Shown: positions 2,721 to 64,000 of the stretch, piece by piece
Position numbering within the stretch: position 1 is the first letter of the stretch
Layout: each line of letters opens with the position of its first letter
NCBI RefSeq assembly: GCF_964204645.1
Contig: NC_134032.1
Coordinates: forward strand, 2,938,175-3,002,174
DNA: 64,000 bases
Reading direction: 5' to 3'
DNA from: Tubulanus polymorphus
Lineage: Eukaryota; Animalia; Nemertea
The notes under the pieces: generated by a model
The model's input: only the letters and a program-made list of their open reading frames with translations
Databases searched by the model: none
Told to the model about the DNA's origin: nothing
Position numbers and translations under genes: made by a program

Positions 2721-2752
2721 AACATCACACAATTAATTTTTTTGTTATATAA

Positions 2753-11851: not shown

Positions 11852-11880
11852 GATTCACGCGGATCAAATGATGGTGTATT

Positions 11881-16026: not shown

Positions 16027-16051
16027 ACAAATAACAAGTCATGGTGTTTGA

Positions 16052-17116: not shown

Positions 17117-17149
17117 AAGGAAAAAGAGGAAGGAAAAGAATGTGCATAG

Positions 17150-33715: not shown

Positions 33716-33719
33716 GCAC

Positions 33720-36100: not shown

Positions 36101-36189
36101 TTTTAAATTGTATTTATAATTGGTTATGAATTATATCTTCATTTAGTTCATTTCCTTTATCCATTGATTTTAAAAAAAAGCTTTTTATT

Positions 36190-37930
36190 TAACAATAATA
36201 ATAATAATCAGCAGGAATACAATAGGGCTTCTGCGAAGGCAGCAGAAACCCTAATAATAATCAACAGAATTACAATAGGGTTCCTGCGAAAGCAGCAGAA
36301 ACCCTAATAATAATAATGAATATAGCAGCAAGCAGCGATAACGGGTTTCTGCCTTTCTGGATAGAATGTCGTTCAGGGAAACGAGCAAAGATTTCACACG
36401 AAATCAGTTCGTGACATTCCGTTTTTTGAAAGAGTGCCACCTAGGGGTCAACTCACAACATGGATATGTTGACCCACATGTGCTACTACGCGCAAAGTAC
36501 TAATGTGCCAGATTTTGGGGGAAATAACATCGAGAAGAACGGAGCTACGGTGTTTTTACCATTCGCTAGTGACAGTTTCAGCGCATATTCGGTTATTATT
36601 GGTTCCGAAAAAAGTCGACCAGATAAGAAAACCGAATTTGGCCCAAAGCACAAATTTGGCCTATAGGGTAAACTATGCAGGAGGGAAGGCCTAGTATTAC
36701 TATAAGTAGAGGAGTGACAAGTCAGTCTGATAAGTCAAGCGATCAGATGGGGACTACAATTCACATATGAAATTGATGTCCAATAACCATTATAAAAACA
36801 TAATCACGAACGGTACCAGCACTCCCCATTACTAACTGTCACTGGTCTCTGGCTAGCAATCATTCTTTATCGGTGCAGTGGGTAGGCATTTTCAACTGAC
36901 TTTGTTCTTCTATGACATTACCATCGCCGCTGCGTCACGATGTGATGTACATGTACAAGGGACCTCCAATTTGTAATGTATGTGATGTATAAACTGACTT
37001 TAGACCATTTAATATCGACGATAACAAGGTATCACCGACGCTGACATTTTCTGACGCTAACTAGTATGACCCGCCTTTTGGACCGGACCAATTCAATTCA
37101 ATTAAGAAAACGCGTACCGGTACAATGAATAAATAAACGGCTGTTGATTTTTCGAAGTATTGATATCCACGAACAAAACTATACTATTATAGAATGTTTA
37201 AAAGGGACTACTTTTAATAACAGTATGAATAAACTTACTTCACAAACAAGGAAGTACATTTTTAACTTGTGAATGGTCGAACTCCGGTTATTCACAGTAA
37301 CCTGTGATTTGGATATTCTCGGAGCCTTCCTTCTTTATTTATTTATGAAATGACGTCTAAAAATTTCAGATTCGCGCCAGTGTGCGCGCCATGATTGATG
37401 ATTGCTATTTCCACCGGTGTTATCTTTAAGTAACTTCAAGTTTAAAATAGGAAGCACAGTACATCCATAGAACCTGCGCGCAGCAAGAGACTGTTATATT
37501 ATTATCAGAGTTTAACATTTCGTTTCAAAGTTGTTAGTGGTCAAATCTAATAGAAGATGATATTTATGTGACGAAACTTAGTGGAAAATATGTTAAAATA
37601 ATAATCAGCAGGAATCCAATAGGGTTTCTGCCGAGGCAGCAGAAACCCTAATAATAATAATAACCAGCAGGAATACAATAGGGTTTCTGCGAAGGCAGCA
37701 TAAACACTAATAAACACGCGAATCTCAATAGGGTTTTCTGTGATGTAACAGAAAACCGTAATAATAATTATGCGAATGTCAATAGGGTTTTCTGTGAAGA
37801 AACAAAACAAACCCTAATATTAATCAGTACAATAACAATAGGGTTTCTGCGAAGGCAGCAGAAACCCTAATAGTAATCACGCGAATATTGATAGGGTTTT
37901 CTGTGAAGTAACAGAAAACCCTAATTATAA
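36190..37930. repeat. Hairpin-containing ~45-50 bp tandem repeats (36190-36320 and 37595-37930) flanking a Helentron/DINE-like insert
   Basis: Unit aatagggtttctgc(n)gcagaaaccctaataat. The atagc(a/t)gc...aagcagcgataacggg end at 36322 recurs at ~48127. Confidence 0.65.
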
Positions 37931-40822
37931 TAATAACGGTTCCCTTGAGATATTTTAAGTGTAAATCCAAGTGTATGTTTCAACAAATAAACTGTTTCAG
38001 TATTATACGTATTATGGGTGGTGATAAATAATTCATTTTTATGTCGCTGATGTCTACTACTCTCTATAATATTTAGTAAGCCATCCACTTAGAATCCAAC
38101 TGCTGCAGGTCATCTGATCAGGTGGACCATAAAATCATCAGGTGAAAGATAATATTTACCTTAATCGATTCGAATAGCCTACAGCAACAGTGACTGATGC
38201 TGGGATTAAGTAAACATATCAGTGTTTTTCTGCATATGGTGTTAGGCTCCCTGTGCTACTGATTATAGAAAAACCGAATCACTCGATATGAATAGCAAAT
38301 TTCCTCGTCGATTCACGCTGAGTATTCATCGAGCAATTAATTGTGGACATTGGAATCTGAGGATGAAACAGGTGACTTATATTGAAAATTTAGCTTAAAT
38401 TGTTTGCAACGGTTTATTGTTTGATGTTGGTCTTTTAACTCTGCATAAAATTATTTACCAAATTCCATCTACGTATATAATTCAAGTGATGCGTGTTGAT
38501 TTGTGATTTTTATTACAAGCACAATTTCGGCGGATGAATTATTTTCAATCAAACGAATTTCCGTGTGTTAAAGAGGACAACTAAATAATGACAACTGAGA
38601 AACTTTTCTCGACTTTTAAAATGTATCACTCATGTCATTATCGTAAGCATATTTAGAGTTTCTGCAAAATACTCTGTTTTATTGCTAAGTAAGGCCCCGC
38701 AGTTAATATGAAAGGTTAGATTTTAACAGTTTCGGGATAATTTAAACCCCATCCTCAGCGAAACTAAAATGGTATAATAATGAATTCACTAATTAAGACA
38801 TATAGTTGTTTCAATTCAAACTGACCACGGAATGCAGCAATGTCACATACATGTAATAAAATCAAATAAAATCTGAATCATAAAATATGTTGCTATTTTG
38901 AATACATGTCATGTCTATCACTGCCTGTCTTATGTGGCTGGGGATTTGTATGTAACACTCATCACTAACGTTGTGTTCACCATGCATTGCTACTAGCGAC
39001 TGGAAATTGGAGAAAATCAATAGGACCACCACTTGGGCTAATCGATTGACGATGAATATTTATTGAGCAGAAATATTAGTTCCCGGACTCTTAAGTGGAA
39101 CAGGTGACGGAATCCAGACAAAAACATCCACAACCACCGCTCCGATCCAGACGTAAATCCATAGTGCAGTAGAATGTAGCTCCTCTAGTTTTCCAGAGTT
39201 CCACTCTAGCTGATAAGTCGTTTGGGGAAACTAGCTGATTTCTTCTGTAGACATTCTTCTTAAGCTTCAGGTAATGGGAATTGTGCCCGGTACAACCACC
39301 AGTTTAATGACACTTAATTCAGATAATTTTAAGTGGTCACCATAGAATATTCCAATCAGAACTCACAGCAGCTACTCGTCAAGCTTTCGTTTACGAGATA
39401 TGTGTATTTTCTCGACTTATTGAATATTGCTTGTTTGGTAGAAATGCCCTTTAGTAAGAACCTAAAAAAACACCATTACATTAAAGATGCTGCATTTATA
39501 CATTATTCACTACAGACTATAGGACATCTTGAAAGGAAAATTCCAATCAAGTAATCTCAGTGTTCTCCATCTATTTAATTAAGGGTGATGAACCTGCCCT
39601 TTTGGAATAAATAAAAATAATTAAAACAAGAGGACTTCAAAGTCCTGAGGTTCGAAGAAGAAAAGTGTGATGTATAAGATATAAATTACATAAAAGAAAG
39701 GCAAATTATGAAAAAGGAAATTAAAAATCAATAGAGAAGTTTGCTTAGAAAAATTCAATTTGTTTGCCGTTTGCATTGCGCACGTCGTAATGCTATTGTT
39801 TACATCTGACGTCATCAATAAAATGCCTGCCTCTCAATCACCATAATTGGTTTACACTAAAAATGCGCTTACTTGAAAAACTATGCTATGTATCAATCTG
39901 GAATTTTCGGTACAATATCCGATGCGAAATACCTTGCTTTGAAGGTTTATTTGGTGTAAATCGGATCCAAAATGTTTCTAATATTTTGTTCATTACTTTT
40001 GAAGTGGTCTGTGGACCTATTTCATTGAGTCGTATCACGCCAACTGAAAAAAAAATCTTCCGATCCTGTCACGTGACTTCATGACTGCAACTTGACGAAA
40101 GCTTAGGTTCTCATTCTTCGAACCGATAAAATGTATGATAATGAATCATGAACACTGGCAGTGATATGTACGGTTTCTCTCATTATGTAGCATTCGTCAT
40201 ATTTCATCAAATAAGCAGGAATTTTCGATCAAATACCACGTTGTTTCATTTTTAACCAGTTGTTGGAATTAATTTTCGAATTACTGAAATATTCGTTGCC
40301 AAAACAAACATCATGCATTGAAAAGCAAACGATGAGCACTTGGTATTTCGAAGTACTTTGTCGTTATAAAATAACAAAGCCTGTGCACTACTGACGTGAC
40401 TAAAGCATTGGTGGACATCGCGCGGACAAAGTGAGTAATTTGACAATATGATTTTACGACCAACCAGCGTGGACCGTTGACTGGTTTGGGTTTATATTGG
40501 GGGCTGCCTAATTTTGTGCATCATTTTTAGGGAAAGACTATGATTTTGGGGGTATTTAAATACATATTACCCGGTATCCAGCCTTTTTGTTTGCACGACA
40601 ATTAGTTAGACCGGTCTAAATGGGTCCGCACCATGTCCGGTCTAAAATCTGAGTGTGGGTTCACACACGTCTTGCGAAATTGGCTACGAATTGTTATGAC
40701 TTGGCTCGCTAGATGTCATGATGTAATATATGAAATACCAACAGTTACTTCATGTACGGTCATAAATGAAGAAATCCCACACTTCGAATTAAATTATACT
40801 GATAGAATTTGTTATTTTGAAA

Positions 40823-40988: not shown

Positions 40989-41061
<73 letters not shown>

Positions 41062-41616
41062 TCTCCCTCTCTCCCTCTCTCCCTCTCTCCCTCTCTCCCT
41101 CTCTCCCTCTCTCCCTCTCTCCCTCTCTCCCTCTCTCCCTCTCTCCCTCTCTCCCTCTCTCCCTCTCTCCCTCTCTCCCTCTCTCCCTCTCTCCCTCTCT
41201 CCCTCTCTCCCTCTCTCCCTCTCTCCCTCTCTCCCTCTCTCCCTCTCTCCCTCTCTCCCTCTCTCCCTCTCCCCCTCTCCCCCTCTCCCCCTCTCCCCCT
41301 CTCCCCCTCTCCCCCTCTCCCCCTCTCCCCCTCTCTCCCTCTCTCCCTCTCTCCCTCTCTCCCTCTCTCCCTCTCTCCCTCTCTCCCTCTCTCCCTCTCT
41401 CCCTCTCTCCCTCTCTCCCTCTCTCCCTCTCTCCCTCTCTCCCTCTCTCCCTCTCTCCCTCTCTCCCTCTCTCCCTCTCTCCCTCTCTCCCTCTCTCCCT
41501 CTCTCCCTCTCTCCCTCTCTCCCTCTCTCCCTCTCTCCCTCTCTCCCTCTCTCCCTCTCTCCCTCTCTCCCTCCCTCCCTCCCTCCCTCCCTCCCTCTCT
41601 CTCTCTCTCTCTCTCT
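40989..41616. repeat. Compound CT-rich microsatellite: (CT)n followed by (CCCTCTCT)n
   Basis: Directly visible ~630 bp pure pyrimidine tract. Confidence 0.98.
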
Positions 41617-46315: not shown

Positions 46316-47500
46316 AATGATGACTTATTTACGTCAAAAATGTAATATTTTGCCATAAATACATATTGAGTCTATGTCACCAGGTCATCATTAAACGTTT
46401 GTTTGCGTCTCTAGGATCTTTCAATTTGTGCTTGTCTATAAGTTACCTCGGTGAAGTTAGTTACTTGTTCCTTTATCGTCCATTTCTATCGGAGCATCCA
46501 CTACCTTATCGGTCATATAATTTCCATCAACGTCGATGAAGTTAATAGACACTCTATTAATATCTAATCCCGATAATTTCAGAGTCTTTTTACTTTCCAA
46601 ATTCGCTGTTGTTATCACAGTCTTTTGCTGTTATTTGAACAGAGTAAATTAAACTTACATCCATTTTGTGCCTCATCGCCTCGAAAACTTGCTGGTGAGA
46701 TAATTTTCTTTCACTTGCTAACTCCTGTAATCCAAATTGAATGGACATGTCCCTTGTTAATCCACTCATATTTATTATCTTGATATAAATGGTTGAATCT
46801 AGACGTTATAGATAGATGCAAACTGACCAGATAATAGATTTACGACGGAGAGCTCCCTAAGCACGGCTGCTCATATCCGCCATGATAGATCGATGTTCCA
46901 AGGTTGTGAACGGGCGGAGGAGATAAAAAAGGATGAAGGATACTACGGGTCTCACGAAGAACCGAACTTCCATATCCCATTTCACTTCGTCTCAGTAGCA
47001 GACGCTCTTCTCTCAGCTGTGACGTAGTCCGGTCATCAACGTTAGCTGTGATGATACTAAACTGATATCCTAGTAGAAGAATGGAAGTATTGTATATTCG
47101 GTGGTGCTGTGATAATGCAGGCATTCGGGAGTTTGAAAATCATGTTCAAAATGTATCGAAAAATAACTAAATTTTGCAACGGACGACCTACAGCTCATCG
47201 CATCACCTGGTCGTATATGGTTTTACTGAATCCACGGGTCAAAATTGTTACAATGTCTCTTAAAAACGTTTAACTGGTATTTCTTGCGTTTAATCTCGTA
47301 GAAAAATGAAGGAATCGTAGGTAAGTGTGAAGAAAAACCATTAAAGAAACACTTTTCCGTGTTGCGACGATAAATAATAAACAAAATGTTGATATATACA
47401 AGCCATCAAGAATTGTGCCGTCACTCTTATAATAAATTACTTTATTTGTCTCTCTGTTCTTGATGGCGTATATAAATGTCACATCATTTTGTTAACTCAG

Positions 47501-47544
47501 TATTCCTGACGATGACAATTAGGACATAGTCGAAACGTTGAATA
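47501..47544 (+). ncRNA. Minimal type I hammerhead ribozyme (Penelope/retrozyme-like)
   Basis: tattc-CTGACGA-t-gac...gtc-GAAACGTT-gaata; stem I tattc/gaata, palindromic stem III AACGTT. Confidence 0.65.
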
Positions 47545-50340
47545 AACTACACTAGCTCAAGGAAACATTTCAGACTCTTTTTATTCTAAGTGTGCAGGGA
47601 TTTTATATCATCTTTACAACAGAGTGTTTTATCAATGGTTATAATGAGGACAACATCTCATTATTCCTGAAAATGACTATTAGAATATTGTCGAATGAAT
47701 TGTTAGCTATCAGGAAACTTGTCGGTTTTCATCTTTCGTCAGATCACTATAGTATTTATTCTCTGTGAATAAATTATGTTTTAGGTATAGACAAATATGA
47801 AATATCCATGTCTTTTTGTGCGTAGAAATGTGAGAAAAGTGGAAAATGGAAAATGTGAAATTTTCAGAATATTGCATCCCATCCCTGATATGTGTCAAAG
47901 TTCGATGCTTTTAAGAGCTCGACCAAGAATTAAATGTAATAAAGGGAAAAGAAAGTTAAACAGGAACGAAATTTTATTGAAGAGCTAAGATATTGTGAAG
48001 TCATTAATCCGAAATAGTAATGGGCAATGCTAAATTCTACAACTAGTTCCAAACCCGGCATAAGCACGCTTATATTTAGTTGGATTTAGCACTGGCTATA
48101 TATAATTCGCATTAATATCATAAATATAGCTGCCAAGCAGCGATAACGGGTTTTTTTCTAAAGCCATTCAGAATGATGGGAATTGTAGTAAATTGAAATA
48201 TCGATACATAGAATAAAATGCATTGACAGATTCGAACCTAATATGCAACCACTGTGTAAACGTCAAATATGATTCAGCTTTGAAACCGAACATACGCGGA
48301 CGTACAATCACAAATATTAATTTATTTGACCAGGCATTTATTTTGGCATTCAAACATCATGATACTGTATTATCACCATGCTCAAAAATGGATCTGTCCT
48401 ATTAAGAACTCATCTTAAGCACCTGCTGAGTCGATAGATTGAGTGAATTTACAGATAAGAACGTACTATGATTTAGAATAGATTTAAGAAGTTAATGTTT
48501 TTATTGAAATATTTGAATAAATACATATATTGTAGTGTAGATTCAATCAATAAATTATGAATTGATCTGGTCTGGGTTTTCGGCTGATGTTGATTTTGGC
48601 TTTTATGGATTACAAATTCTATAGTGATAAACAATTGATACCTGCAACATGTGTGTAAATCAAACCTATTCCACTAGTTGCGTGTGTTTCCTAATAAACG
48701 GGAGAGTCACTCTTGATCCGAGTTATTAGAAAAATAATGTTCATTTAGTTATAGAAATTCATTGCCTTTTTGGAAATTCTGTAATTATATTTGTTCTGTC
48801 CTAATTTGTATTACTGTATGAACCAATGATATGCTTTGTAAATATGATGTAATAAAATAAATTTGAATTTGAATTAAATTTGAACATGAGAATCAAACAT
48901 AACTTGTGTTTTTTCAACTTGTCTTTTGTTAACAGTTCCAGAGTTTCAATTACAATCAAATCCAAATTTGGCTAAAAAAGTACATGGGACTAAATGAAAT
49001 GAACCGTTAGTTACTGCAAACCTATTCCAGTGTTATGTCGATCGTGTTGAATCACTTTCCTTGAGTTGAAAGAATCAGATCTTCTATGGTGCAACATCGG
49101 TCGAAGAGAGATATCTTGGTGTTGACTGTCCTTGGCCATCTAACTTCATGCGTTTGACGTTGGAATCAGCATCATACCCACAGTACATGTATACAGTAAT
49201 CAAACTTTCACCGATGTTAGATATTTGAATAAACGTTGGGCTTATTTCAGTATTCTAAAGCAGGAAATAATAAGCCCAATAAATAGGCCCTATTCCCATT
49301 GGAACAATTGTATAATGCGTACAGCAGCACTTATCAGTCAAGTATGGAGAAATCGGTATACCAAACCTACGAACAGCAAAATGTACAGGCCTCCAATGAT
49401 TTCTGGTATACAAGCCGTGACCATATGAACGTTTTGGTTTGACTATTAATGTCAGCAGGTCAGAGAAGGCCTGGTCAAATTTAATCACATGGCTCAAATC
49501 AATTAGCCTTTCTGCGTGTGAATACTTCACTGTATTGTTTTAAAAATAGACCTATCGAGTGAATTAGTACAAAGACTGAATTAGACTTTAGGCTAGTCCT
49601 GACCAAATCCTATGCATGTTATAATTGCACCAGTTATAGTAAAATCACTGTAGGGCCGACGAGAGGGAAAAAGTTGTGTTTGTAGTACATAGGCATGGTA
49701 GGCTTGTCGTACTCACTTAATACTTAAAATGCTGTCGTTACCTGTGCGTGACTGTACGATGATTTCTACAGGTTGGCCGTATGTGAGTACGTTGACGCTC
49801 AGACTTGCAATATTGGGATTCGAAACCAAACGAAAAAAAATCCAGTTGTAGTCCAGTGATTTACCCACGGTGCCACAGAACGTAACTGCAGGGTGGATGA
49901 AATTTGATTTACGAATAGCCTAGCCTCACCTAACCCAAACTCTATTCTTTTACGCATGCGCGTTTGCAGATTAAAGGAACTCACATACAACGTTTTTAGG
50001 GAACTTACGTACGGCGTTTTTAGGGAACTCACGTTCGGTTAACCTGTCGATATCACCGTACAGCAACGTACGCATAACAACTTCGTACTTAAAAAATGGT
50101 ATTGGCTACTATATAATAGGCCTCGGTAGGCTTTCTTAGCTTCCACACTTCACAACCGAACCAACTGACCAACCAGTATATTTATTCCCAGTACGCACCA
50201 ACCGGCAGAGGCCTAACACTGTTTGTCAACCGTGTGTACCGTAGTAGGCTATCGATAATCACCTGATACTTTTGTGTCGTTCGTTTTCTCTCTACATGTT
50301 GTCACTATGGTACCACAGTGGAGTGAGGGGAGGAGGGGGG

Positions 50341-50490
50341 ATGACGTCATACCGGAAGTGACGTAATCCAAGATGGCGACCGGAAGTGACGTAATCCAAG
50401 ATGGTGACCGGAAGTGACGTAATCCAAGATGGCGACCGGAAGTGGCGGTTAAAATTCAAATTTCAAATTTTTGGCGGGAAAATTCAAAAT
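50341..50490 (+). promoter_or_regulatory. Left terminal motif array: 3 x 28 bp CCGGAAGTGACGTAATCCAAGATGGCGA plus E2F/CHR-like site
   Basis: ETS (CCGGAAGT), CRE (TGACGT), YY1 (AAGATGGCG); ttttggcgggaaaattcaaa. The repeats are seen directly; function is inferred. Confidence 0.65.
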
Positions 50491-50790
50491 TTTTCCGTTA
50501 AATCCAAATCAAATTATTGACAACGAATCCAAATCAATTTATTGGCGGTTTTAAATCCAAATTGGTATGATTGAATCCTAGATGGCGCTTACGCATTCCT
50601 ATGCGTGTTTATGGGAAGAGTTGAATCCTAGATGGCGCTATTACGAGATCCTATGTGTACGTGGAGGTGAGGGGGAAGTGAAGTTAAATCCTAGATGGCG
50701 CTTTTCCCTGAGTACGGGCAAATTCGAGACATAGAAAACCAAAAATTAAAAAAAACAATGTAAAACAATAAAAAAACATTTTATTCACCG

Positions 50791-51354
50791 TTAAAATTTA
50801 CAGTTTAAACACGGTTTAAATCCGAATTCCTTGGCGCACGAGACGTGAATATAAGCGTCGCAGCAGTCTGTCTTTTGTTTAGTTATTTCCAAACACACTA
50901 AACACGTGTTGATGCCACAAAATAAAGTTATGCAGTTATAACAAAAGTTTTCTTCATACCCTTCACACGTTTTAAGTTCGCTTAAACAGGGCCAGCATAT
51001 AGTTTTATCACAACAATGAAGCAAATCCTCTTGCGCGTGACAACGATAACAGTCTTTTTTCGCGATATGTTTGATAATCCTAAAATGTGCCATGCAATTC
51101 TCGATAGGACATTCGAAATCATGTTGAACGCCTAACCATCGAGCGTTCACTAGCCAGCAATCTTCACAAATCGGTTTCCTGCAACACGTCGTTACTCGAA
51201 AACTACCGTATGTAATTGTCGTATTACAATATTTGCAAATCGCAAATCCGGTAGACCAGTCGATATCTTCAAAGTCGACATGATTTATTTCATGTTCCGT
51301 GGTAGTTGATTTTTTTAGGAAAATGTTTTCCACGGTAAAAAAATCGCCAGACAT
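50791..51354 (-). CDS. Cys-rich protein with three tandem RING-like zinc fingers (left arm copy, intact)
   Basis: CKYC..CC..CEDC..CPIENC; CYRC..CC..CWPC..CYNC; CLVC..CC..HVSC..CLNC. AATAAA follows the stop. Confidence 0.75.
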   Translation of the reverse strand: MSGDFFTVENIFLKKSTTTEHEINHVDFEDIDWSTGFAICKYCNTTITYGSFRVTTCCRKPICEDCWLVNARWLGVQHDFECPIENCMAHFRIIKHIAKKDCYRCHAQEDLLHCCDKTICWPCLSELKTCEGYEENFCYNCITLFCGINTCLVCLEITKQKTDCCDAYIHVSCAKEFGFKPCLNCKF

Positions 51355-51758
51355 TTTCGTAAATCACGTCTCGTTTATGCGAGTGTAAACAAAGCGAGTG
51401 CGCAGTTAAATCCTAGATGGCGCTAGTCCGTAATCCTATACAGATGCGTGCGCATGCGTGCGTTTGTGTGTACGTGTGTAAGCGAGTGACGTCATCCTAG
51501 ATGACGCCATGATTACATAATCCTATGCGAGAGCGTGTATAGAGAGGGAGCGGGGTAAAATCCAAGATGGCGTCTTTTAACGGCTATTGTGAAATCATGA
51601 ACGAGTTTGGGCGAAATATATTTCGCAACAACAAGTGAAACCGTAAATCGTGTTCGGGCAAGTCATTTTCTGACAATAACAACGCCATGTAAATCCATAA
51701 ACTAATCATTCTGCTCAGAGACTTTGAACCGTCAACATCATACAACATCATCGTAATA

Positions 51759-52568
51759 ATGGATTCGGCCAGCGGACAAAGTACCTTAGAAATATCTAAT
51801 ACACCAATTAAAGCAAAGTCATCGCTTCAATCTAGAAAAAGAAAACACCCCTCGCTGAAACTCGACTTTAGTAAGTTTCTACTTATTTCCCGTATTCGAA
51901 ACCGTCAAATATTAAGACATACGTATACTGATATATGATATTTTATTGTTCTTTTAGGTTCGATCGTTAATGACAACGCTGTCGCCGGTCCGTCGAAAAG
52001 TGCGAACTTGCGTAACACCTGGAACAATGACCCCGAACCCCATTATCTAGGATCTCTTGTTTACGCGAGTGCGAAAACGTGGCAGGGGGTAAAACGTGTA
52101 GATTTACGGTCGTACGAATGCTGTGAACGAAGAAAACAACTGTATCCCACTAAAAACGGTATTTCGCTCGATATCCAAGAGTGGGTGCATATAGATTTTT
52201 TTAAATCCGATATCGAACACGAAATTGCGCGCGTTAAAGAAGATATCGAATACGTGGGTGTAATGACTGTTGGTCGTACGAACTTTATCAAAATATATAG
52301 GTCTAGTCACGATCATCGTATTTACGTAGATATCCGAAAATACGATCTATTCGATGAACCTCTCGGTGTTTCCCCGACTAGATGCGGTGTAAAACTAACA
52401 TTGGAACAATGGAAAAAATTGAAAGACATTAATTTTACAGAAGATATATCCGAACTGGCTAATATGAGACCGTGCTGGTACGATTCGAGTCACTCGAATC
52501 AGAAATACAGGTGCCCGTACTGCGCAAAAGACACAAGCGGGGTTAGAAAGCACCTGAATACGGTATAA
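51759..52568 (+). CDS. Spliced tandem-PC4 (ssDNA-binding) protein, 240 aa. Exons 51759-51870 and 51958-52568
   Basis: 87 bp GTAAGT...TTTTAG intron joins an ATG exon (NLS-like RKRKHP) in frame. Two PC4 repeats (VDLRSY...PTKNGISLDIQEW; VDIRKY...PTRCGVKLTLEQW); C-terminal C..H..CxxC. Confidence 0.85.
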
Positions 52569-53266
52569 TGATAACCCAAGTATAATTAAAGTGATTTAAA
52601 ACCGCTCTGACCAAAAGAGGATTAACTAAAGTAGTGAGTTTCTATCTTTTACGAATTTTTATACGTAGCGACTCATTCGTCATCTACCGGATTGTATAAT
52701 TAAAAGCCATAACCCGTGTATATGTATAATATTTTTGGAAAAAAAAATTTATGTTTTTTAGATGAACGAGTAAATAATAAACTTGCAATGTATATAATAT
52801 TTCATATATGTTTCATTTTATTCGGATTTACTCTATAATAATCAAGCATTTTGTCGTTGGCCAGACCCCTTGATACAATATATCATCTATGAACGTAATT
52901 AAGTAATTGATAAACAAATACCATTGACCCATGGTTAGCATCTACCATCTAAAATATCTGGTCAGTACCCTCGATGATATGTGATGGAATATGCAGGATA
53001 AAAATTACGCAATTAAGTAATTGAGAAACAAATACCATCGACCCATGGTTAGCATCTGCCGATTAAGTTATTTAGATCAGAGACACAACCGCGATGGGGG
53101 GAAATTAAGTATGAGCAAACCAACTATAGTATACCCCATTTCGGGTGTGTTGGTTGTTTGTTGATTGACTGACGCGATTAAGCTGTTTGGAAAACCTAGA
53201 CTAGTAACAGATGGTTTTCTACGACGAGTTTATAGAAATATAATTTAGAAATAATACATAATAGTT

Positions 53267-53720
53267 TATTATAGAAGCTTAAAATATTTCACGATAAATT
53301 TTTCTTTTACAAAATAATCATTATCATTAGTTTTATTTGACAATAGTTTCGTAATATCGCGTACATCGTTACCGTGACATAGGTGCAATAGTACAAATAT
53401 TGCGTAATAACAGAAATACATCGGATAATTCGTTTTGATACATCTTATTATTATATTTCCAATCTATACAATTTTCATCCAAGTATATTTCTAACATTTA
53501 TCACAAGTTCCGGGTTGTTGCCCGAACGAATCAAAAATAACCGATTCCGTATTCGTTTATATATACAGTTAGCCAATGTTCACCCGGTTCGTCGTAATTG
53601 TCAGTGTTTACTATAAAACCCAGCGGGACGCTGGTTTATATCTGGTAGTCGATCGCATGGAAAAACGCCAAAGAAAGACGCTTTTAGATATTCCTCTAGT
53701 ATAACTATTAACATATCGCA
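53267..53720 (-). pseudogene. Second (inverted) copy of the adenain-like protease pseudogene
   Basis: Reverse complement of 56260-56707 with the same frameshift at gctgggttttatag. Confidence 0.85.
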
Positions 53721-55744
53721 AGCGAATTTATTAACGTTACAATCTCATGGATGAATCGAAAAAACTATTACTTTACTTTACTTTTGCTTTATTTGACAAA
53801 CTCTTGGTCTTAATACAAAGACAATTCGAGTGATACAGTATACATAAAAATAAATACATTATATATAGGACGCACAGTAGATAGATACATAATTACACAT
53901 TGATTTTAATGTGAGCTATCAATTGAAAAGTTTCAAAATTCTTCCAACAAAAATACACAGTTTACGGAGTTCGGCTACATCTTTAGTTTGCATTAATAAT
54001 TTTTATCTGAAAATGTTGGGGGTTCGTATAAAATCTCCTGTCTAGGTATAACTCCCTTCTATCATTTAGATATATACAGTTGAAAAGGTAATGAAATTCG
54101 TCCCCAATTCCATTATCACACAATTTACATATTCTTTCAGCACGCTCTACATTATTCCATCGGCCAGTTTCTATTGGGAGCTTATGGTTTGCAGGACGGA
54201 ATTTAGTTAAATTAATTATGAGGTTATCTGAAAGATCAGAGACTAGATGGTTACGGGGCTTGACTCAATGCCACGCGCTTGGACATGTTCTAATGTTATG
54301 TATTGTATACAAAGTGTTGACAAGCTCAATTTATACAGCATTGTAGCCCTCCGGCATTTTCAAAGTTTTAGATGATTTATCAGTAGAAATACTCTTATAT
54401 TGCGCATCCTAGTGCGTTAGTGTTTAAGTGATTTTAGTGTTTTAGTGTCGAATATGTAAAACCGCAGTTTATTGGATTTCGAGTTGTAAGCATTTCCCGA
54501 TAACTTACATTAATTATAATGCAGAATTCTTTATTTCCAGTTAACGAGGTTTAACAATTTTTCAGTTTAAAAAAAATATGGTTTGGACTTTTTTAATAGG
54601 AAAATACTAACAGGTTTGATGAAAAAATAGAAAATGGGATTTCCGGTTTTATCATTTTTCAGTATATGGCGTTTTAGTAGGATGATGATTTTAAATTTTC
54701 AATAAACGCGGTATAACAATTTTTAGGTTTTTGAAAATATGGTTCCAAAGTCTTGTATACACAAGAGATTTTAAACAACGAAACTACACACACATGTAAC
54801 TAAATCACTTTAGTCTTTCCAAATATAGAGAAATAACAGACAAAAATATGTATATGTATATACCTTATCTTTTTTTCGCATCGCTTTTTCTTTGTTACAA
54901 AATTCCCAATTTTTAAAAACTTTTCTTAAATATTTATGTTTTTTAAACATATTTTCTCAAATTCCCCATACTTTTACATCGCAATATTATATCGAGATTT
55001 TCTACATTTCATGCATTTTACAGCTAGACCTTGGTAAATTTATAAAGATTTGGTACGTTAAATAACGCAGCAGGTAAACATTTCAATTGTATTACTTCGT
55101 TATGCGTAAATGTTTCGCGTCATCTTCGTACAATATATGACTGCTATCGGCAGAAATATGGTAAATTAGGAATTAACATATCTTAAGTTAGCTTCACTTT
55201 TTAGCAACGGACTTTTGCGCGTTGCCAATTTTACAAAAACTGAAAATTCAAACGATTGAATTTATGTGTTAATACCAGTTTATTTTACGTCTTAATCAGT
55301 TGGATAGCAGGCATAGAGTGTTATGATAATTAGTTACAGTATACACAGAATAGAATCGAATATTATACTACTTGATTACTCATACTTCATCAGATCGTAA
55401 CTGAGATTGTCCTACAATGACTTTTCTTTAACTATATACTCGTTAACTGGAAATAAAGAATTCTGCATTATAATTAATGTAAGTTATCGGGAAATGCTTA
55501 CAACTCGAAATCTAATAAACTGCGGTTTTACATATTCGACACTAAAACACTAAAATCACTTAAACACTAACGCACTAGGATGCGCATTATAAGAGTATTT
55601 CTACTGATAAATCATCTTAAACTTTGAAAATGCCGGAGGGCTACAATGCTGTATAAATTGAGCTTGTCAACACTTTGTATACAATACATAACATTAGAAC
55701 ATGTCCAAGCGCGTGGCATTGAGTCAAGCCCCGTAACCATCTAG

Positions 55745-56210
55745 TCTCCGATCTTTCAGATAACCTCATAATTAATTTAACTAAATTCCGTCCTGCAAAC
55801 CATAAGCTCCCAATAGAAACTGGCCGATGGAATAATGTAGAGCGTGCTGAAAGAATATGTAAATTGTGTAATAATGGAATTGGGGACGAATTTCATTACC
55901 TTTTCAACTGTATATATTTAAATGATAGAAGGGAGTTATATCTAGACAAGAGATTTTATACGAACCCCCAACATTTTCAGATAAAAATTATTATTGCAAA
56001 CTAAAGATGTAGCCGAACTCCGTAAACTGTGTATTTTTGTTGGAAGAATTTTGAAACTTTTCAATTGATAGCTCACATTAAAATCAATGTGTAATTATGT
56101 ATCTATCTACTGTGCGTCCTATATATAATGTATTTATTTTTATGTATACTGTATCACTCGAATTGTCTTTGTATTAAGACCAAGAGTTTGTCAAAAGTAA
56201 AGTAAAGTAA
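55745..56210 (+). mobile_element. LINE 3' end (RTE-X-like CCHC tail) with (AAAGT)n tail; inverted copy at ~53770-54245
   Basis: LTKFRPANHKLPIETGRWNNVERAERICKLCNNGIGDEFHYLFNC. Confidence 0.8.
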
Positions 56211-56259
56211 TAGTTTTTTCGATTCATCCATGAGATTGTAACGTTAATAAATTCGCTTG

Positions 56260-56707
56260 CGATATGTTAATAGTTATACTAGAGGAATATCTAAAAGCGT
56301 CTTTCTTTGGCGTTTTTCCATGCGATTGACTACCAGATATAAACCAGCGTCCCGCTGGGTTTTATAGTAAACACTGACAATTACGACGAACCGGGTGAAC
56401 ATTGGCTAACTGTATATATAAACGAATACGGAATCGGTTATTTTTGATTCGTTCGGGCAACAACCCGGAACTTGTGATAAATGTTAGAAAATATACTTGG
56501 ATGAAAATTGTATAGATTGGAAATATAATAATAAGATGTATCAAAACGTATTATCCGATGTATTTCTGTTATTACGCAATATTTGTACTATTGCACCTAT
56601 GTCACGGTAACGATGTACGCGATATTACGAAACTATTGTCAAACAAAACTACTGATAATGATTATTTTGTGAAAAAATGCATCGTGAAATATTTTAAGCT
56701 TCTATAA
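56260..56707 (+). pseudogene. Polinton adenain-like cysteine protease pseudogene
   Basis: FFGVFPCD.LP...P.GF/IVNTDNYDEPGEHWLTVYI...YF/DSFGQQP...YNNKMYQNVLSDV; frameshifted. Confidence 0.85.
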
Positions 56708-56935
56708 TAAAACTAAAATGTATATGGATTTAGTCGTTTTTTAAATTCTACAAAATCACTGAGGAAAAAAGTTTTGTTAAAACTTGGAGAAAAAACTGAA
56801 GCAAAAAGCGCGGCAAGGCAAATTAACACTGGCTCTTTCTTGAAAATTGAAGTGGTCCTGAAAAGGACCTTTTGAGGAAGGGGTCAGTGTCCGAGTTCGT
56901 CGTCGTCGTATTCTTCGGCAGTGTTGTCATCAACA

Positions 56936-57277
56936 TCATCGACGTTGCTGCTGCTGTTGTTGCCGTCTCTGGTGACGGCGGCGCCGGTTTCGTCGCATTC
57001 TCTGTTCTTCTTTGCGTATATGCTCTGCAAACATGCGTGCCCAACGCACAAAATTTCTGCAGAACGGACACAAAAATACATCATTAGCGTCTTCACCCCC
57101 CAGTTCAAGGTTTCATCGTATTATGGCGGAGACGCAGCTTCCACACGTCAAGTTTCTGTATTGACACTGGCTACATAGTAGCCAGCACCGCTGCCCGGAC
57201 GTGAAGCATATGCCGCACTCGAGCACTGCATCGGCATCATCCGGAATCTCAAACCAACGTGCTCCAATCACAGACAT
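56936..57277 (-). pseudogene. RING-finger protein with Arg/Gln-rich tail; internal TGA at 57115-57113
   Basis: MSVIGARW...ECGICF...CSQC...CGSC...IR*NLEL...CPFCR...RRNRRRRHQRRQQQQQQRR*. Confidence 0.7.
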
Positions 57278-58094
57278 GTTGGAAATGATTTGTCCTAAAA
57301 CTACCCCCTTATTTATGGGTCTAAGTCAGACGACTAATTAGTTGATTAATTCTTATAGTCTTACAGTTTACTCAAAGTATTTGAGGATTCTATCACATAT
57401 AATTAACGGTGTTTTTGATACTCTGGTCTATTATCACCCAGCATATAAGACCATCTGTTCGGTTTTATCTAAACAACCTAATTACCTCAGCGCTATGAGC
57501 ACTAAAAATGTTCGACGAATTATTGCTAGTGTAATTGGTTTGAAACCTATTTTCCCATCGCGGACGTGTCTCCGATCTAAATTACTTAATTGCCTTCGTC
57601 TTCCACATATGATTAACGGTGTTTGGATACTATCGACCCATCTGCTACTGGTAATTGGTTTTGCTCACACCTATTTTCCCCAATCGTGGTCATGTATTGA
57701 TCTAAATCAATTAATTGCCTTCTTTGTCGGATATATCGTATCATGGGTCTGGATAGCAACGAAATGCTAGATTAACGTACTGTTAAATCAGAATAAGTCA
57801 AAAATGAAATCTTTTATTCAATTAATGTTTTATTTAGTCCTAAAAAACATAAATAGTTTTATAAATATTGTAGATAAAACCATAAATTTCATAAAAGATA
57901 GAAATGCACTACTTTAGTTAATCCTCTTTGGTTAGAGCGGATCTTAATGAAGTCCTGGATTAGTCATTTCGGATACTTATTTCTATCTGAGAGTTTAACG
58001 CAAACTAACGTATATAAATTGATGTATTTTTTTTACATATTTGTTCGGTTATGATATAAATATTATCTAATTAATATCTTTTAAACTACTTTAA

Positions 58095-58922
58095 TTATAC
58101 TTGGGTGATCATTACACCGTATTCAGGTGTTTTTCGTACTCCAGAAGTGTCTTTTGCGCAGTACGGACACCTGTATTCCTGATTCGAGTGACTCGAATCA
58201 TACCAACAGGGCGTCATATTGGCTAGTTCGGGTATATCGTCATTAAAATTAATGTCTTTCAATTTTTTCCATTGTTCCAATGTTAGTTTTACACCGCATC
58301 TAGTCGGGGAAACACCGAGAGGTTCATCGAATAGATCGTATTTTCGGATATCTACGTAAATACGATGATCGTGACTAGACCTATATATTTTGATAAAGTT
58401 CGTACGACCAACAGTCATTACACCCACGTATTCGATATCTTCTTTAACGCGCGCAATTTCGTGTTCGATATCGGATTTACAAAAATCTATATGCACCCAC
58501 TCTTGGAGATCGAGCGAAATACCGTTTTTAGTAGGATACAGTTGTTTTCTTCGTTCACAGCACTCGTACGACCGTAAATCTACACGTTTTACCCCCCGCC
58601 ACGTTTTCGCACTCGCGTAAACAAGAGATCCTAGATAATGGGGTTCGGGGTCATTGTTCCAGGTGTTACGCAAGTTCGCACTTTTCGACGGGCCGGGGAC
58701 AGCGTTGTCATTAACGATCGAACCTAAAAGAACAATAAAATATCATATATCAGTATACGTATGTCTTAATATTTGACGGTTTCGAATACGGGAAATAAAT
58801 AGAAACTTACTAAAGTCGAGTTTCAGCGAGGGGTGTTTTCTTTTTCTAGATTGAAGCGATGACTTTGCTTTAATTGGTGTATTAGATATTTCTAAAATAC
58901 TTTGTCCGCTGGCCGAATCCAT
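58095..58922 (-). CDS. Spliced tandem-PC4 protein, right arm copy. Exons 58922-58811 and 58723-58095
   Basis: Same intron as the left copy; C-terminus differs by a 1 nt indel (…RKTPEYGVMITQV*). Confidence 0.85.
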
Positions 58923-59320
58923 TATTACGATGATGATGTTGACGGTTCAAAGTCTCTGAGCAGAATGACTAAATTATGGATTTGCAACGCGTTTTTATTG
59001 TCAGAAAATGACTTGCCCGAACTCGTTTTACGGTTTTACATGTTGTTACGAAATATGTTCGCCTAAACTTGTCTATGATTTCACAATAGCCGTCAAAAGA
59101 AGCCATCTTGGATTTTACCCCGCTCCCCTCTATATACACGCTCTCGCATAGGATTATGTAATCATGGCGTCATCTAGGATGACGTCACTCGCTTACACAC
59201 GTACACACAAACGCACGCATGCGCACGAATCTGTATAGGATTACGGACTAGCGCCATCTAGGATTTAAACTACGCACTCGCTTTGTTTACACTCGCATAA
59301 ACGAGACGTGATTTACGAAA

Positions 59321-59884
59321 ATTTCTGACGATTTTTTTACCGTGGAAAACATTTTCCTAAAAAAATCAACTACCACGGAACATGAAATAAATCATGTCGA
59401 CTTTGAAGATATCGACTGGTCTACCGGATTTGCGATTTGCAAAAATTGTAATACGACAATTACATACGGTAGTTTTCGAGTAACGACGTGTTGCAGGAAA
59501 CCGATTTGTGAAGATTGCTGGCTAGTGAACGCTCGATGGTTAGGCGTTCAACATGATTTCGAATGTCCTATCGAGAATTGCATGGCACATTTTAGGATTA
59601 TCAAACATATCGCGAAAAAAGACTGTTATCGTTGTCACGCGCAAGAGGATTTGCTTCATTGTTGTGATAAAACTATATGCTGGCCCTGTTTAAGCGAACT
59701 TAAAACGTATGAAGGGTATGAAGAAAACTTTTGTTATAACTGCATAACTTTATTTTGTGGCATCAACACGTGTTTAGTGTGTTTGGAAATAACTAAACAA
59801 AAGACAGACTGCTGCGACGCTTATATTCACGTCTCGTGCGCCAAGGAATTCGGATTTAAACCGTGTTTAAACTGTAAATTTTAA
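59321..59884 (+). pseudogene. Triple RING-like protein, right arm copy with lost start codon (ATG>ATT)
   Basis: aaaATTtctgac versus aaaATGtctggc in the left arm; one Cys>Tyr change. Confidence 0.7.
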
Positions 59885-60189
59885 CGGTGAATAAAATGTT
59901 TTTCTATTGTTTTACATTAATTTGTTTTACATTTGTTTTTTGAATTTTTGGTTTACTTCGTTTCACCCGTACTCGGGATTCCTTGGAAAAGCGCCATCTA
60001 GGATTTACTCCTCCCCCTCCTCACACACTCACACACGCTTAGAATCTCGTAATAGTGGCGCCATCTATGATTTATTCATACCAATAAATAAAATTGGATT
60101 GAACGCCGCTAATAAATAAAATTGGATTTAACATCATCAATAAATTGATTTGGATTGGTTGTCAATAATTTGATTTGGATTTAACGGAA

Positions 60190-60390
60190 AAATTTTGAAT
60201 TTTCCCGCCAAAAATTTGAAATTTAACCGCCACTTTCGGTCGCCATCTTGGATTACGTCACTTCCGGTCACCATCTTGGATTACGTCACTTCCGGTCACC
60301 ATCTTGGATTATGTCACTTCCGGTCGCCATCTTGGATTACGTCACTTCCGGTCGCCATCTTGGATTACGTCACTCCCGGTATGACGTCAT
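60190..60390 (-). promoter_or_regulatory. Right terminal motif array: 5 x 28 bp unit plus E2F/CHR-like site
   Basis: Five units at 60240-60379; tttgaattttcccgccaaaa at ~60194. Confidence 0.65.
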
Positions 60391-61301
60391 CCCCCCTCCC
60401 CCTCCTCCCCTCACTCCACTGTGGTACCATAGTGACAACATGTAACTACTTCTCTGAGACGAACGTAATTCTGCACCGTAATTCTAGAAGCCCTCCGCGA
60501 CTCAACGACCTTGATTTAAACTTGATCAATTCAAATTCTGTTTATTGACGCTTTTGGTTACATGAACTGATCAGCAATATACTTAAATGAAATAACCGGA
60601 ATAACAAGAAATCAAAAATATTAAAGAGGTAACAAACAAATGCCCGTAAACCTGTCAGACACGCGAACGCCGGACTCGTAAACTATTGGACTCGGACTAA
60701 ATTCATAAAATTGACTTTGAAATTGATTGTGGAGAAGAGAGGGAATAATTCGATAGCTCTTCCTCATAAAGAAGAGAGAAATTTCGGAAAGAAAACACAA
60801 CATGGCTACTAATTGAACGGAGCCAAATTTCCGATGTTTACGGCTCGACAGTGCCTTTATAACGTGGATCACGAAGGTACAGAGCCGCAACTTTCAGCGA
60901 CCTTGACACCAAACACGTGAACTTTCTGTGCGCGAATGTTGTTATGACGTCATAATACTCTAAATAAACAACACCGCGCGGTCTCGCGATACGCGCGTGG
61001 AAGGATCTAAAATCTATTCTGCGATGTATTTAAAATAATATTTATAAAAGAATTCATTTAAAGACTATAATTAACATATAAAACATAAAATTAATTGAAA
61101 GCAACATCGCTGGAAGATTAGTTTTAAAAATTTGATCGGTGTCAATCATCAATTACCGCTAGTCAAAATGGCGGCCGTCATGATAAACAAGACGGAGAAT
61201 TTTCTTTAACTGACTGGATCTGGTATAAAATGTAGTATTTCACATCACAAATGGCCCAAGTCCGTTTAAAAGAATAACTGTACCGCACTCAAGGCACCAA
61301 G

Positions 61302-62142
61302 CAGGGGCGGATCCAGGGGGATGGGTAGACAGTATTGGAAGGAAATTGAAGGGCACCTTTCTGATCTTAGGGCACACCCAGTATCCAGGTCAATGCGAGC
61401 GCCGAAGGCGCGAAGTCCTTGGAGGGGGGTCCGGGGCCCACCCCCAGAAAATTTTGAAAATATGGTACCATTTAAAGGCTTTTAGAGGGCTTCTAGAGGC
61501 TAGCAGAGCAATCCAGAATAAACGAATTCGAGACAAGATTTCAACATATGCGGATAAAAAATGAAGCTGGCGAACCCATGAAAGAATGGTTGTCGCCAAC
61601 TTCGCCTAGTGCCCCTATAATCTTTAAAAGTGCCCCTTAACAATTACACAGAATACGGCTAAGTGCCCCTTCATTGTTAACAATCGGCAAAAATTGCCTC
61701 GTCTTCACATTTATCCTCATGTCGTGTGCCATCTTCCAAACCAAAAGTGCCCCTAAAATTTTAAAAATTAGGCAAAAAATGCACTTTTCTTCAACATTTT
61801 CCGCGTATAGTGCCCTCTTCTAAAGTACGAGTGCCCCTTTAGCCCTCCCTGAAAAGGCAAGGGCAACGTGCCCTTATCTAAAGCATGAGTGCCCCTTGCA
61901 AAAGGAAAGTGCCCTATTTAATTTATCATGATTAAAGGCTTTACAAATATGATTATCTCTCTTCACTTTCTCGGCAGCAGTATTTACCGATTAATTTTAT
62001 AATTATGCCCGGATTACGGACAAGGAATTAGCGGTTGCTGAAATAATGCCGTCAAAAATATTGCCGGTGAAATTTCGAAGGGCACTTAACAATTCTAGAC
62101 CGTATTGGGCAATACGGCTAATACGGTCTGGATCCGCCCCTG
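61302..62142. mobile_element. MITE with 15 bp TIRs and an apparent 5 bp TSD (CCAAG)
   Basis: ccaag|caggggcggatccag ... ctggatccgcccctg|ccaag; internal gtgccc repeats. Confidence 0.8.
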
Positions 62143-64000
62143 CCAAGGTTGGAATATAGCTATGGATCATGATAAAATAGTGCGCTACGACCGATAAAAT
62201 ATCAGCTGTCGGTACTCGGTCATGCCATGTTACAGGCACTCTTCTGTCGCATCGAATCGGAACCTGATTCCCGAAGCAGCCAAGGTCCTAACGAGAAGAA
62301 TAAACGAAACAAATGTAAGTGTCCTGCACTCAATTCTACGGTGTCTAATTATCTTCAAGTGTCTACTCCATCCACACTTTAATGTAGTCTACAAAAACAT
62401 GGACAAGCGATACTTTAGATTAGGTTCTCATCAAAGAATCTACTGGGGGTTGAGTGAACTTGTAGGTAGTGTACTCACTGCTACTTATCTTATTTTTAGG
62501 AAACATTTTTGACAGACCACCTATCCACTAGTGAATGATTTTTCCATGGACCCGAAAAGTAGGCCTAGGCCTCTTAGAGTCATAAGAAGGTAGGCTATTG
62601 ATCTCATTTATTTACATAACTATGAAGTCTTCAAATAAATTTCCACATGCAATTTTTTTATTTCAAAGGCAATGTTAATTTAGAGGTCAACTTGTGACTA
62701 GAAAAGCCAGGTTTACAGGATTGGAGATGATAAAAAGTGAGTAGGCCTCACTGACTGAATGGTAAATATATCATCATGTAGTCATCGCTGCTGTATTGAA
62801 TCATTTAACTTTCAGCAATCAATTGATTTTTTTGTTTGCTTTTATTCATCTTTAGGTGATGCAGATATCAAGTACAAGGACATGAAGTTGAATCTTTAAA
62901 CTGGGGATTGTCAAGATTTTACTTGTTTCCATCTTTTCACTTAGATGTTTGAATAAATCTAAACATATAAAAGAGCTTTTTCTTGTGCGTATTCCTGAAG
63001 TCGTCAATTCCTATTCATGCCTACTAACAGAAGAAAATAAGAGAAGCTTTGTCCACACTTGCATCTTATACCGAGGTTATGCGTCTACACTAAGCTCGAA
63101 ACACGGGTTGTATGCAAAAAGCCAGGTTTTTGAAAAAGGAGTTATATAACCTATTGAGAATTGAACCTATGTTCACGAAAAACTCTACAGATGTGGATTC
63201 AGTTACTGGAGCTAAATTAAGTGTAGATGCAGCCCTGCAAACGCTGGGTTTATATGAACCCGCATACTTTGAAACCCGGGTTCAACGAGCTGTAGACGTG
63301 GTAATATATATCGCAGTCAGAAAAAGAAGCAAATTGAAAGTACATCAATCTTTTATTTCCAACCTAAAACAATGAGACAGAAGGTTTGAATGCAACAAGC
63401 TATTTGAGCAATTGCGGTTACTAATTTGTAAAATGTATTGATATGATATGGATGGCCAACTGCTGAATTCCATGGGTACCATCAGAACCAAATGCACGCT
63501 ACTTGCCATCTACCTGAAATAAACAAATGTCAATATTATGTTATAAACAAATGAATATGAAAAAAATGCAAATTTCTGCTTGATACAACTTACATTTGAA
63601 TGGGAAACATCGGTTATAAAATATCTGCTATGTCTGACAAATAACTGACGAATCCTACAAAACAAAAAAATATATTATCTTTAAAATAAAATTTACAATT
63701 TCAAAGATTTTTGGCAATCTTCCAATACAATATACATAGGTCCCTAGTAGGCCTACGCTAAACACTTACTGAGCCAGACAGCCTGATATCCTTTCAAACA
63801 AAACTGAATTCGACATTAGATGTGAGATGCGTGAAAATGAGCCATAGGCTGGTTTTCCACGAGAAACAGATCAATCAAATTTATTTCCCTTTAGCCGTTT
63901 CCACAACAAGGGTGCGGCACTGTTGGACAGGACAGACACACATTTCCGAGTCTGTATTAATCAATTGTTTACTGTGACTGCGCAGTAATTAGTCAGAATT

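Follow-up and report, generated by a model that had tools for sequence, protein, structure and literature searches.

The 64-kb window analyzed here (64,000 nucleotides of contig NC_134032.1 from the assembly GCF_964204645.1 of the nemertean Tubulanus polymorphus, positions 2,938,175 to 3,002,174) contains a palindromic element of 10157 bp at 50294-60450, in which arms of 4255 bp (left) and 5012 bp (right) flank a spacer of 890 bp and together make up 91% of the length (Table 1). It had originally been predicted as a nested palindrome, and self-BLAST of the window confirms two inverted arm pairs: the outer pair (50293-52601 and 58079-60444) is 90.7% identical with gaps included, and the inner pair (53254-54548 and 55439-56723) 97.5% identical, with 18 substitutions in 1283 aligned bases. 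Weaker inverted matches of 69-86%, reaching 53126/57532, occupy most of the interval between the outer and inner arms, and two nested repeats describe the structure less well than a single long, imperfect inverted repeat with a diverged bubble; 7860 bp of the 10157-bp element lie in detectable inverted alignments. Common to both arms are a Cys-rich triple-RING-like gene (hereafter RING3), a double-PC4 gene with an intron, a broken protease of Polinton type and a piece resembling a long interspersed nuclear element (LINE); a third, broken RING-like gene is restricted to the right arm. The right arm is the longer mainly because this extra gene and its flanks lie there. The predicted gene order was correct, as judged from the paired Pfam PC4 domains, the Cys pattern of the RING-like gene and the frame pieces of the protease, but the statement that only regulatory-type cargo is kept was too strong, since two dead protease copies and the LINE-like pieces are also carried.

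Table 1. Features of the palindromic element and its target site, with positions in the window, strand and basis of assignment.
Feature	Position	Strand	Basis or remark
Duplicated target TCTCT, left copy	50289..50293	+	Empty-site joint 50288 to 60451, 133 reads
Left arm (type A, 4255 bp)	50294..54548		Self-BLAST; outer end 7 bases shorter than right end
28-bp tandem repeats, 3.4 copies, containing CCGGAAGT, TGACGT and AAGATGGC	50351..50444	+	TRF
RING3, 187-amino acid Cys-rich protein with three RING-like Cys clusters, open frame	50791..51354	-	Open reading frame (ORF) listing
Double-PC4 gene, arm A copy, one predicted spliceosomal intron (GT..AG), frameshifted near C-terminus	51762..52568	+	Pfam PF02229, PDB PC4
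Arm-A bubble: short repeats 69-86% like arm-B repeats, without the RING gene	52602..53253		Inverted alignments
Polinton/adenain-type cysteine protease remnant, frameshifted	53272..53744	-	Six-frame pieces, presumed motif
LINE-like 3' piece (C-terminal frame, AATAAA, short tail repeat), upstream of protease	53770..54264	-	Six-frame reading
Non-coding spacer, 890 bp	54549..55438		First part in ~5 copies; a piece of another repeat in the later part
Right arm (type B, 5012 bp), terminating ACTACT	55439..60450		Self-BLAST
LINE-like piece, mirror copy	55723..56210	+	ORF listing, arm alignment
Protease, mirror copy, broken	56234..56707	+	Six-frame pieces; PDB and Atlas leads on middle piece
Histone mRNA 3' stem-loop, then CAAGAAAG downstream element	56829..56874	-	Rfam RF00032 and pattern match
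Single RING-like gene, arm B only, internal stop	56884..57283	-	ORF listing, six-frame reading
Arm-B bubble: promoter region and short repeats	57330..58079		Inverted alignments
Double-PC4 gene in arm B; second exon stays open as far as the C-terminus of RefSeq homologues	58095..58919	-	Pfam, homologue comparison
RING3, arm B copy, start codon lost, otherwise open	59321..59884	+	ORF listing, arm comparison
28-bp tandem repeats, 5.4 copies	60231..60380	-	TRF
Terminal AGTAGT motif	60445..60450	-	End comparison; published end motif in excerpts of PMC8097293
Duplicated target TCTCT, right copy	60451..60455	+	Empty-site joint

The RING3 label is based on the Cys pattern and on weak Atlas leads (0.85-0.90) to viral RING clusters; the protein has no Pfam match, no homologue was recovered by word search or among 1.84 billion representatives, and single-sequence folding gave no confident structure (mean pLDDT 34). 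The double-PC4 gene matches PF02229 twice (E=5.6e-14 and 1.4e-14), in an alignment that also matches solved PC4 domains in the PDB. Of 43 candidates only 3 are relatives by sequence, all of them annotated proteins of Tubulanus polymorphus itself with 95, 85 and 67% identity; eight annotated double-PC4 loci of this species are distributed across these three clusters, showing, as judged from the identities, that related subfamilies exist. The loci at 67% identity include LOC141905512, LOC141908872, LOC141910291 and LOC141906229. The annotated homologues are spliced, and GT..AG sites are present at the matching place in the window. Pattern searches for this gene in other contigs yielded 4 viral and 589 metagenome matches, none of which was confirmed. 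The terminal gene pairs, originally described as largely intact, have mostly open frames, but the right RING3 lost its start codon and the left PC4 gene is frameshifted near its end.

The tail of the single RING-like gene can be read in two frames, one Arg/Gln-rich and the other acidic; the Pfam match of this gene to RING_XB3-XBAT31 (E=0.006) lies below the cut-off, and no homologue was found. In the "RING-Arg" gene proposed earlier, the Arg-rich run lies behind the internal stop and may not be the real tail. Approximately 10 bases behind the stop of the acidic-tail frame, in the same orientation and convergent with the protease, begins a histone-type mRNA 3' stem-loop, which together with its downstream element had been missed in the earlier description. 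Rfam family RF00032 (Histone3) is recovered at 56829-56874 with 35.4 bits against a gathering threshold of 34 (E=1.4e-6), the only Rfam match in the window, and the combined pattern of hairpin and CAAGAAAG downstream element is matched once, with no match in 100 shuffles. From its consensus we take CAAGAAAG to be a histone downstream element (HDE). The hairpin stem forms in both the minimum free energy and the centroid structures, with a folding no better than that of shuffles (z=-1.7). Pfam searches of the frames upstream of the stem-loop recovered no histone family; these frames give the RING-like protein. Such a hairpin with an HDE constitutes the SLBP/U7 processing signal of replication-dependent histone messages (excerpts of PMC2995043). 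The single RING gene, although broken here, is accordingly predicted to have produced a non-polyadenylated message processed via SLBP and U7, which would tie it to S phase.

Two groups of 107 and 129 reads match 43 bases of this region (56827-56869) but continue into other sequence on either side. The 43-bp signal is found again at higher copy number, between flanks that can no longer be aligned, and by eye these flanks share short stretches with those of the window. A diverged sister subfamily seems a likelier source of the recurring signal than a host histone gene; in that case the flanks diverge around a conserved signal. Capture of the stem-loop from a histone locus is possible. Among viral contigs there was no match to the stem-loop with downstream element, and a single match to the hairpin alone, inside a phage ORF, was taken as chance. 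In metagenomes the full pattern was matched twice (L002:1633-1670 and L003:58-97), 110-190 bases behind non-histone ORFs that encode a 651-amino acid orphan and a 154-amino acid GDSL-like protein (E=9e-6), and no Polinton context was seen around either. A literature search of titles and abstracts recovered no histone stem-loop on a Polinton or viral gene.

The main out-of-frame pieces of the broken protease are the same in the two arms. We take the remnant to be a Polinton protease from its motifs; the 34-amino acid middle piece of the mirror copy has the S273R protease of African swine fever virus as its sole PDB match (E=0.66) and Atlas leads to Peptidase_C5/C48 clusters (0.81-0.92). The protease pieces had no Pfam match, the C-terminal piece matched only unrelated proteins, none of 10 matches was confirmed when reference Polinton proteases were sought via the window's other integrase, and a PHROGs search gave nothing useful. 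The LINE-like piece, presumably of this class by its motif, likewise had no Pfam match; its observed/expected CpG ratio is 0.79 as against 1.2-2.2 in the neighboring element genes. As to core genes, there is no long ORF for a protein-primed DNA polymerase B (pPolB), and tblastn with the window's other pPolB-like protein found nothing in the element. Similarly, neither the ORF listing nor tblastn searches with the core proteins of the other Polinton-like remains in the window detected a retrovirus-like integrase or a packaging ATPase, the best tblastn hit for the ATPase having E=0.79. The longest stop-free stretch in 54250-55730 is 78 codons. The originally noted want of a polymerase, integrase and ATPase is thus borne out.

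The right end of the element reads AGTAGT inward and the left end lacks this motif, as originally described. In the excerpts of PMC8097293, AGTAGT is the commonest end motif of vertebrate Mavericks, the ends of which take the form (AGT)2//(ACT)2. Among the best-supported rows of the read-joint tables, from which all joints given here derive, an empty-site joint connects 50288 to 60451 in 133 reads, with 5 letters fitting either side, and a further 351 reads connect 50293 to 60477 with few letters between. The empty site gives an exact target duplication of TCTCT (5 bp), an element start at 50294 and a left end 7 bases short, so that the pair tctctc/tctctg proposed earlier is out of register. 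Polinton target duplications of 5-8 bp are given in the excerpts of bioRxiv 10.1101/2023.08.22.554363, and one small post-insertion deletion over the left junction would reconcile the 5-bp copy with a 6-bp duplication. The flanks (47500-50288 and 60451-62450) are part of one high-copy host repeat of ~100-200 copies, with depths in the public DNA run X5 of mostly 400-1200 as against ~15-100 inside the element; because of this, other copies of the repeat supply the empty site. The palindrome is a single insertion into this high-copy host repeat. A joint from 60450 to 58140 (14 reads) shows the right terminus in a second context, which might reflect a tandem form or an element inserted in a sister copy.

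These observations bear on three further explanations of the palindrome: an assembly artefact, two independent head-to-head insertions, and a foldback element that belongs to another transposon class and took up Polinton pieces. The empty allele, which the original prediction had set as a test, joins both flanks at one target, and two independent insertions are rejected; the arm-specific parts are present in multiple copies in other individuals, and an artefact is rejected as well. The left end without the terminal motif, the 5-bp duplication and the lack of a mobility gene that would fix the class could suit a foldback element, but the right terminus is the published Maverick motif and a putative protease remnant is present, making this whole group of explanations highly improbable. 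Of the Polinton cis features, terminal inverted repeats (TIRs) are present. The 28-bp repeats near the left end contain CCGGAAGT, TGACGT and AAGATGGC, presumably ETS-, CRE- and YY1-like motifs. CCGGAAGT occurs 8 times in the element as against none in the other 54 kb of the window, and AGATGGCG, noted in the terminal repeats and promoters, 13 times in the element as against 6; we take AGATGGCG and CCGGAAGT to be YY1- and ETS-like. No strong DNA hairpin was found in the first 60 terminal bases (-2.6 kcal/mol).

Copy numbers were estimated from depth in run X5 with both arms summed, assuming the run to be from Tubulanus polymorphus with all reads from the host, for which a genome of 313-358 Mb by flow cytometry (excerpts of PMC8468679) converts one copy to a depth of 5.4-6.2. 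The summed depths are 139 for the ends, 129 for RING3 and 137 for the PC4 5' part. The protease reaches 99 and the LINE-like piece 90; the arm-A-only and arm-B-only parts have depths of 57 and 65-69, and the first part of the spacer has one of 29. This corresponds to ~21-26 ends, 9-13 of each arm type and ~5 spacers (first 500 bp). Ends, RING3 and PC4 stand at about 1:1:1, with each arm-specific part at about half, which implies that almost every end of the family carries the RING3/PC4 pair. Most arms seem to continue into the protease, and the read depth points to a family of about ten elements, each with two arms. Run X2 has a contig that spans the left inner arm and spacer (54236-54731), and a joint in run X1 leads from the spacer to the right inner arm (55201 to 55541, depth 91), its short side being only 30 letters. 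An X1 contig of depth 280 would cross the junction between arm A and the protease, to judge from the distances to contig ends in two variant rows. A joint that connects mid-PC4 with the single RING gene at its start, and that includes 22 extra bases (57259/58406/52275), is found in the best rows of all four runs except X3, and a small palindrome at 52358-52373 marks a local flip of similar depth in X1; these two suggest a rearranged sister subfamily.

The divergence between the arms is a patchwork. Substitutions amount to 0.9% at the terminus, 12.8% in the sub-terminal part, 0.7% in RING3, 5.5% in the shared promoter, 1.6% in the PC4 5' part and 11.8% in the PC4 3' part; for the protease the figure is 1.8%, and for the LINE-like piece with the stretch upstream of it 1.1%. 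Between arms, the last 50 compared PC4 codons show 10 silent and 5 replacement changes, and RING3 none silent and 4 replacement, all of these being small numbers. The PC4 3' divergence is read as probably old and selected and that of RING3 as recent and unselected: a silent-biased PC4 block alongside a replacement-only RING3 would imply that the arms parted long ago under selection, were overwritten blockwise and then drifted. That both arms share the protease lesions and the LINE-like piece in turn implies that arm-to-arm copying postdates the death of the protease. A fresh copy-back of one end was rejected as an origin, given that the arms differ by the 69-86% bubble and one whole gene. The same difference counts against a true satellite or defective-interfering genome of copy-back origin, which helper particles would package and which selection for its RING and PC4 regulators, acting on helper or host, would maintain. 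Such a satellite would account for the two-armed symmetry, the conserved ends with dense transcription-factor-like repeats, the multi-copy state and the fact that RING3 and PC4 each have an open frame in one arm or both. However, the RING3 differences are all replacements and one of its start codons is lost, and the PC4 gene has no confirmed relatives in viral or metagenome contigs; we regard it as decidedly unlikely.

On balance the evidence tips towards the element being a non-autonomous Polinton/Maverick derivative, copied and integrated by the enzymes of a helper Polinton. Its Polinton origin is supported by the right terminal motif and the protease remnant; the original suggestion of long gene-bearing TIRs of Polinton descent agrees with these two and with the mostly silent PC4 divergence. 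The multi-copy state, with no mobility gene found, points to movement in trans. The alternatives offered originally, a Polinton that lost its core or a helper-replicated satellite, are not mutually exclusive: the element appears to be core-less and multi-copy and is thus probably moved in trans, whereas a copy-back or defective-interfering life cycle, a helper, particles and the suggested hairpin or dsRNA product are conjectural. A different account, possible though somewhat unlikely, is that of an autonomous Polinton with gene-bearing TIRs of 4-5 kb, most copies of which keep pPolB and integrase, the window holding a one-off core loss after insertion in a form that never moved. The spacer has half the depth of the arm-specific parts and the X1 contig diverges from it after 55050, as that account would expect; a dead protease alone would not be expected to block transposition, and butterfly Polintons have adenain and hexon in TIRs of ~2 kb (excerpts of bioRxiv 10.1101/2025.02.07.637071). 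In contrast, the first 500 bp of the non-coding spacer recur in ~5 copies, the X1 joint leads from the spacer into the right inner arm, and the protease and LINE-like piece found here seem to follow in most arms (depth 90-99 of ~130).

Several points weigh against a helper-dependent derivative. The spacer depth of 29 is half of that expected from one shared center, the diverging X1 contig has 481 of 653 letters aligned, and other copies have other centers, possibly with a core. The depth accounting is not clean: the PC4 3' part sums to 200, not ~130, and the arm-B depth bin includes partial reads that match the stem-loop only. The joint of mid-PC4 to 57259 occurs frequently, with 28 reads in X5 and a depth of 463 in X1, which implies that a further rearranged arm exists. 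The putative pairing of A with B arms and the putative absence of a core in other copies are read from short-read depth. The protease assignment combines presumed motifs with the weak matches given above, the exact duplication is 5 bp and not the usual 6, and for capsid genes no unexplained long ORF remains, though no profile search for capsids was made. No helper element was found, the window's two other Polinton-like remains being without meaningful match to the element.

For the non-autonomous derivative the following history can be proposed. The ancestor would have had long TIRs with the RING-like/PC4 pair, probably extending towards the protease, and its arms would have diverged under selection. 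The protease might then have broken and the LINE-like piece inserted beside it, after which the lesions would have been copied from arm to arm, probably through gene conversion or template switching between arms paired in a replication panhandle. Protein-primed replicons can form such panhandles during strand-displacement replication, and a panhandle model also exists for Polinton replication; the literature covered here holds no direct observation of the latter. Alternatively, chromosomal break repair might have caused the copying. Such copying would give the patchwork of 1-2% and 12-30% divergence. The core would have been lost with the ends still working in cis, the family would have spread to roughly ten copies, and the copy in the window would subsequently have decayed neutrally in place.

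A bolder and unlikely conjecture is that the element represents a helper-dependent satellite of an animal Polinton virus, consisting almost wholly of paired gene-bearing arms and keeping ubiquitin-ligase-like and PC4 regulators, one of which would be expressed via SLBP/U7 for S-phase timing. Recurrence of the 43-bp signal between non-aligning flanks would agree with its conservation in a sister subfamily. Irrespective of this, the homogenized and diverged arm blocks, with pseudogene lesions copied across the arms, offer a natural record for testing arm-to-arm conversion. If the family is both core-less and mobile, it marks the cis sequences needed for movement in trans, and if the histone-type 3' end is used, it places a gene of a mobile element on the processing pathway of histone messages, with a possible S-phase coupling of its expression. 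Precedent in the preprint excerpts and the decaying state of this copy limit this significance.

Elsewhere in the window, AT-rich remains of another Polinton-like element at 626-4884, with no meaningful match to the palindromic element, contain an open integrase and chromo ORF (rve, E=3e-10), an A32-type ATPase ORF (E=8e-13) and smaller ORFs. A second AT-rich block (31900-37950) has a 536-amino acid frame, which we take to be a Polinton pPolB from its motif and which had no Pfam match, with 53-59 bp repeats at 36199-36314 and 37597-37931. A near-complete LINE-like unit lies at 13101-17158, with a 368-amino acid frame upstream of an 863-amino acid frame that presumably encodes an endonuclease/reverse transcriptase-like protein. 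The frames at 9131-11854, 18785-19183 and 22851-23809 are presumably of G protein-coupled receptor type, and 10892-11851 and 22857-23824 are inverted copies (74%). A piece of a PIF1-like helicase (25787-26305; Pfam E=8e-16) possibly stems from a Helitron, and a (CTCTCCCT)n array of 78 copies occupies 40989-41616.

With the Polintons/Mavericks (adintoviruses; excerpts of PMC8097293, bioRxiv 10.1101/2023.08.22.554363 and PMC8502044) the element shares TIRs, accessory genes near the ends, a target duplication (here exactly 5 bp), the (AGT)2 terminus at its right end and a putative adenain-type protease remnant. It differs in its length of 10.2 kb as against 13-25 kb, and in its arms of 4.3 and 5.0 kb, as against TIRs of 46-1447 bp in intact vertebrate Mavericks (PMC8097293) and of 100-1500 bp in Polintons in general (bioRxiv 10.1101/2023.08.22.554363). 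Unlike Polintons/Mavericks it has no detected pPolB, integrase or ATPase, and its PC4 gene is spliced whereas the core genes of intact vertebrate Mavericks are described in the excerpts as intronless. The excerpts of bioRxiv 10.1101/2025.02.07.637071 bring the closest likeness: butterfly Polintons whose ~2-kb TIRs contain hexon and adenain, and Polintons that lack polB, carry LINE or LTR elements as cargo and are apparently still mobile. Shared with these are the doubling of genes including the protease in long TIRs, LINE cargo, loss of the polymerase and apparent mobility; however, they encode canonical Polinton proteins, whereas no working core gene was found in the present element, 91% of which is arm, and which adds a patchwork of old and new arm divergence and one histone-type 3' end. 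The layout is hence less unprecedented than originally implied, gene-bearing TIRs and polB-less mobile Polintons both having precedent in preprint excerpts. A core-less palindromic Polinton did not surface in the titles and abstracts searched, a scope outside which lie Kapitonov and Jurka 2006, Pritham 2007 and Repbase, which may describe non-autonomous long-TIR Polintons; nor did the excerpts of PMC11131425, PMC6431247, PMC3014272, PMC8502044 and PMC13525598 hold a closer system. The element is more extreme than the known Polintons in arm length and gene loss, and within the titles and abstracts covered, its histone-type 3' signal was not found in print for such elements.

With histone mRNA 3' ends (RF00032 and HDE, recognized by SLBP and the U7 snRNP; excerpts of PMC2995043) the element shares a hairpin above the cut-off, a purine-rich element about ten bases later and a position just behind a stop codon. 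It differs in that the upstream gene is RING-like and resides in a mobile element, the signal being recognized here at the level of sequence. Defective-interfering or copy-back viral genomes and inverted-repeat adenovirus minigenomes are symmetric, keep their cis-acting ends and have lost replication genes. In these three respects the element resembles them, but it is integrated with a target duplication and its arms are in part anciently diverged. Thus, in comparison with known systems, the element falls outside the autonomous Polintons, fits their cis features in part and appears to behave as a non-autonomous derivative of them.

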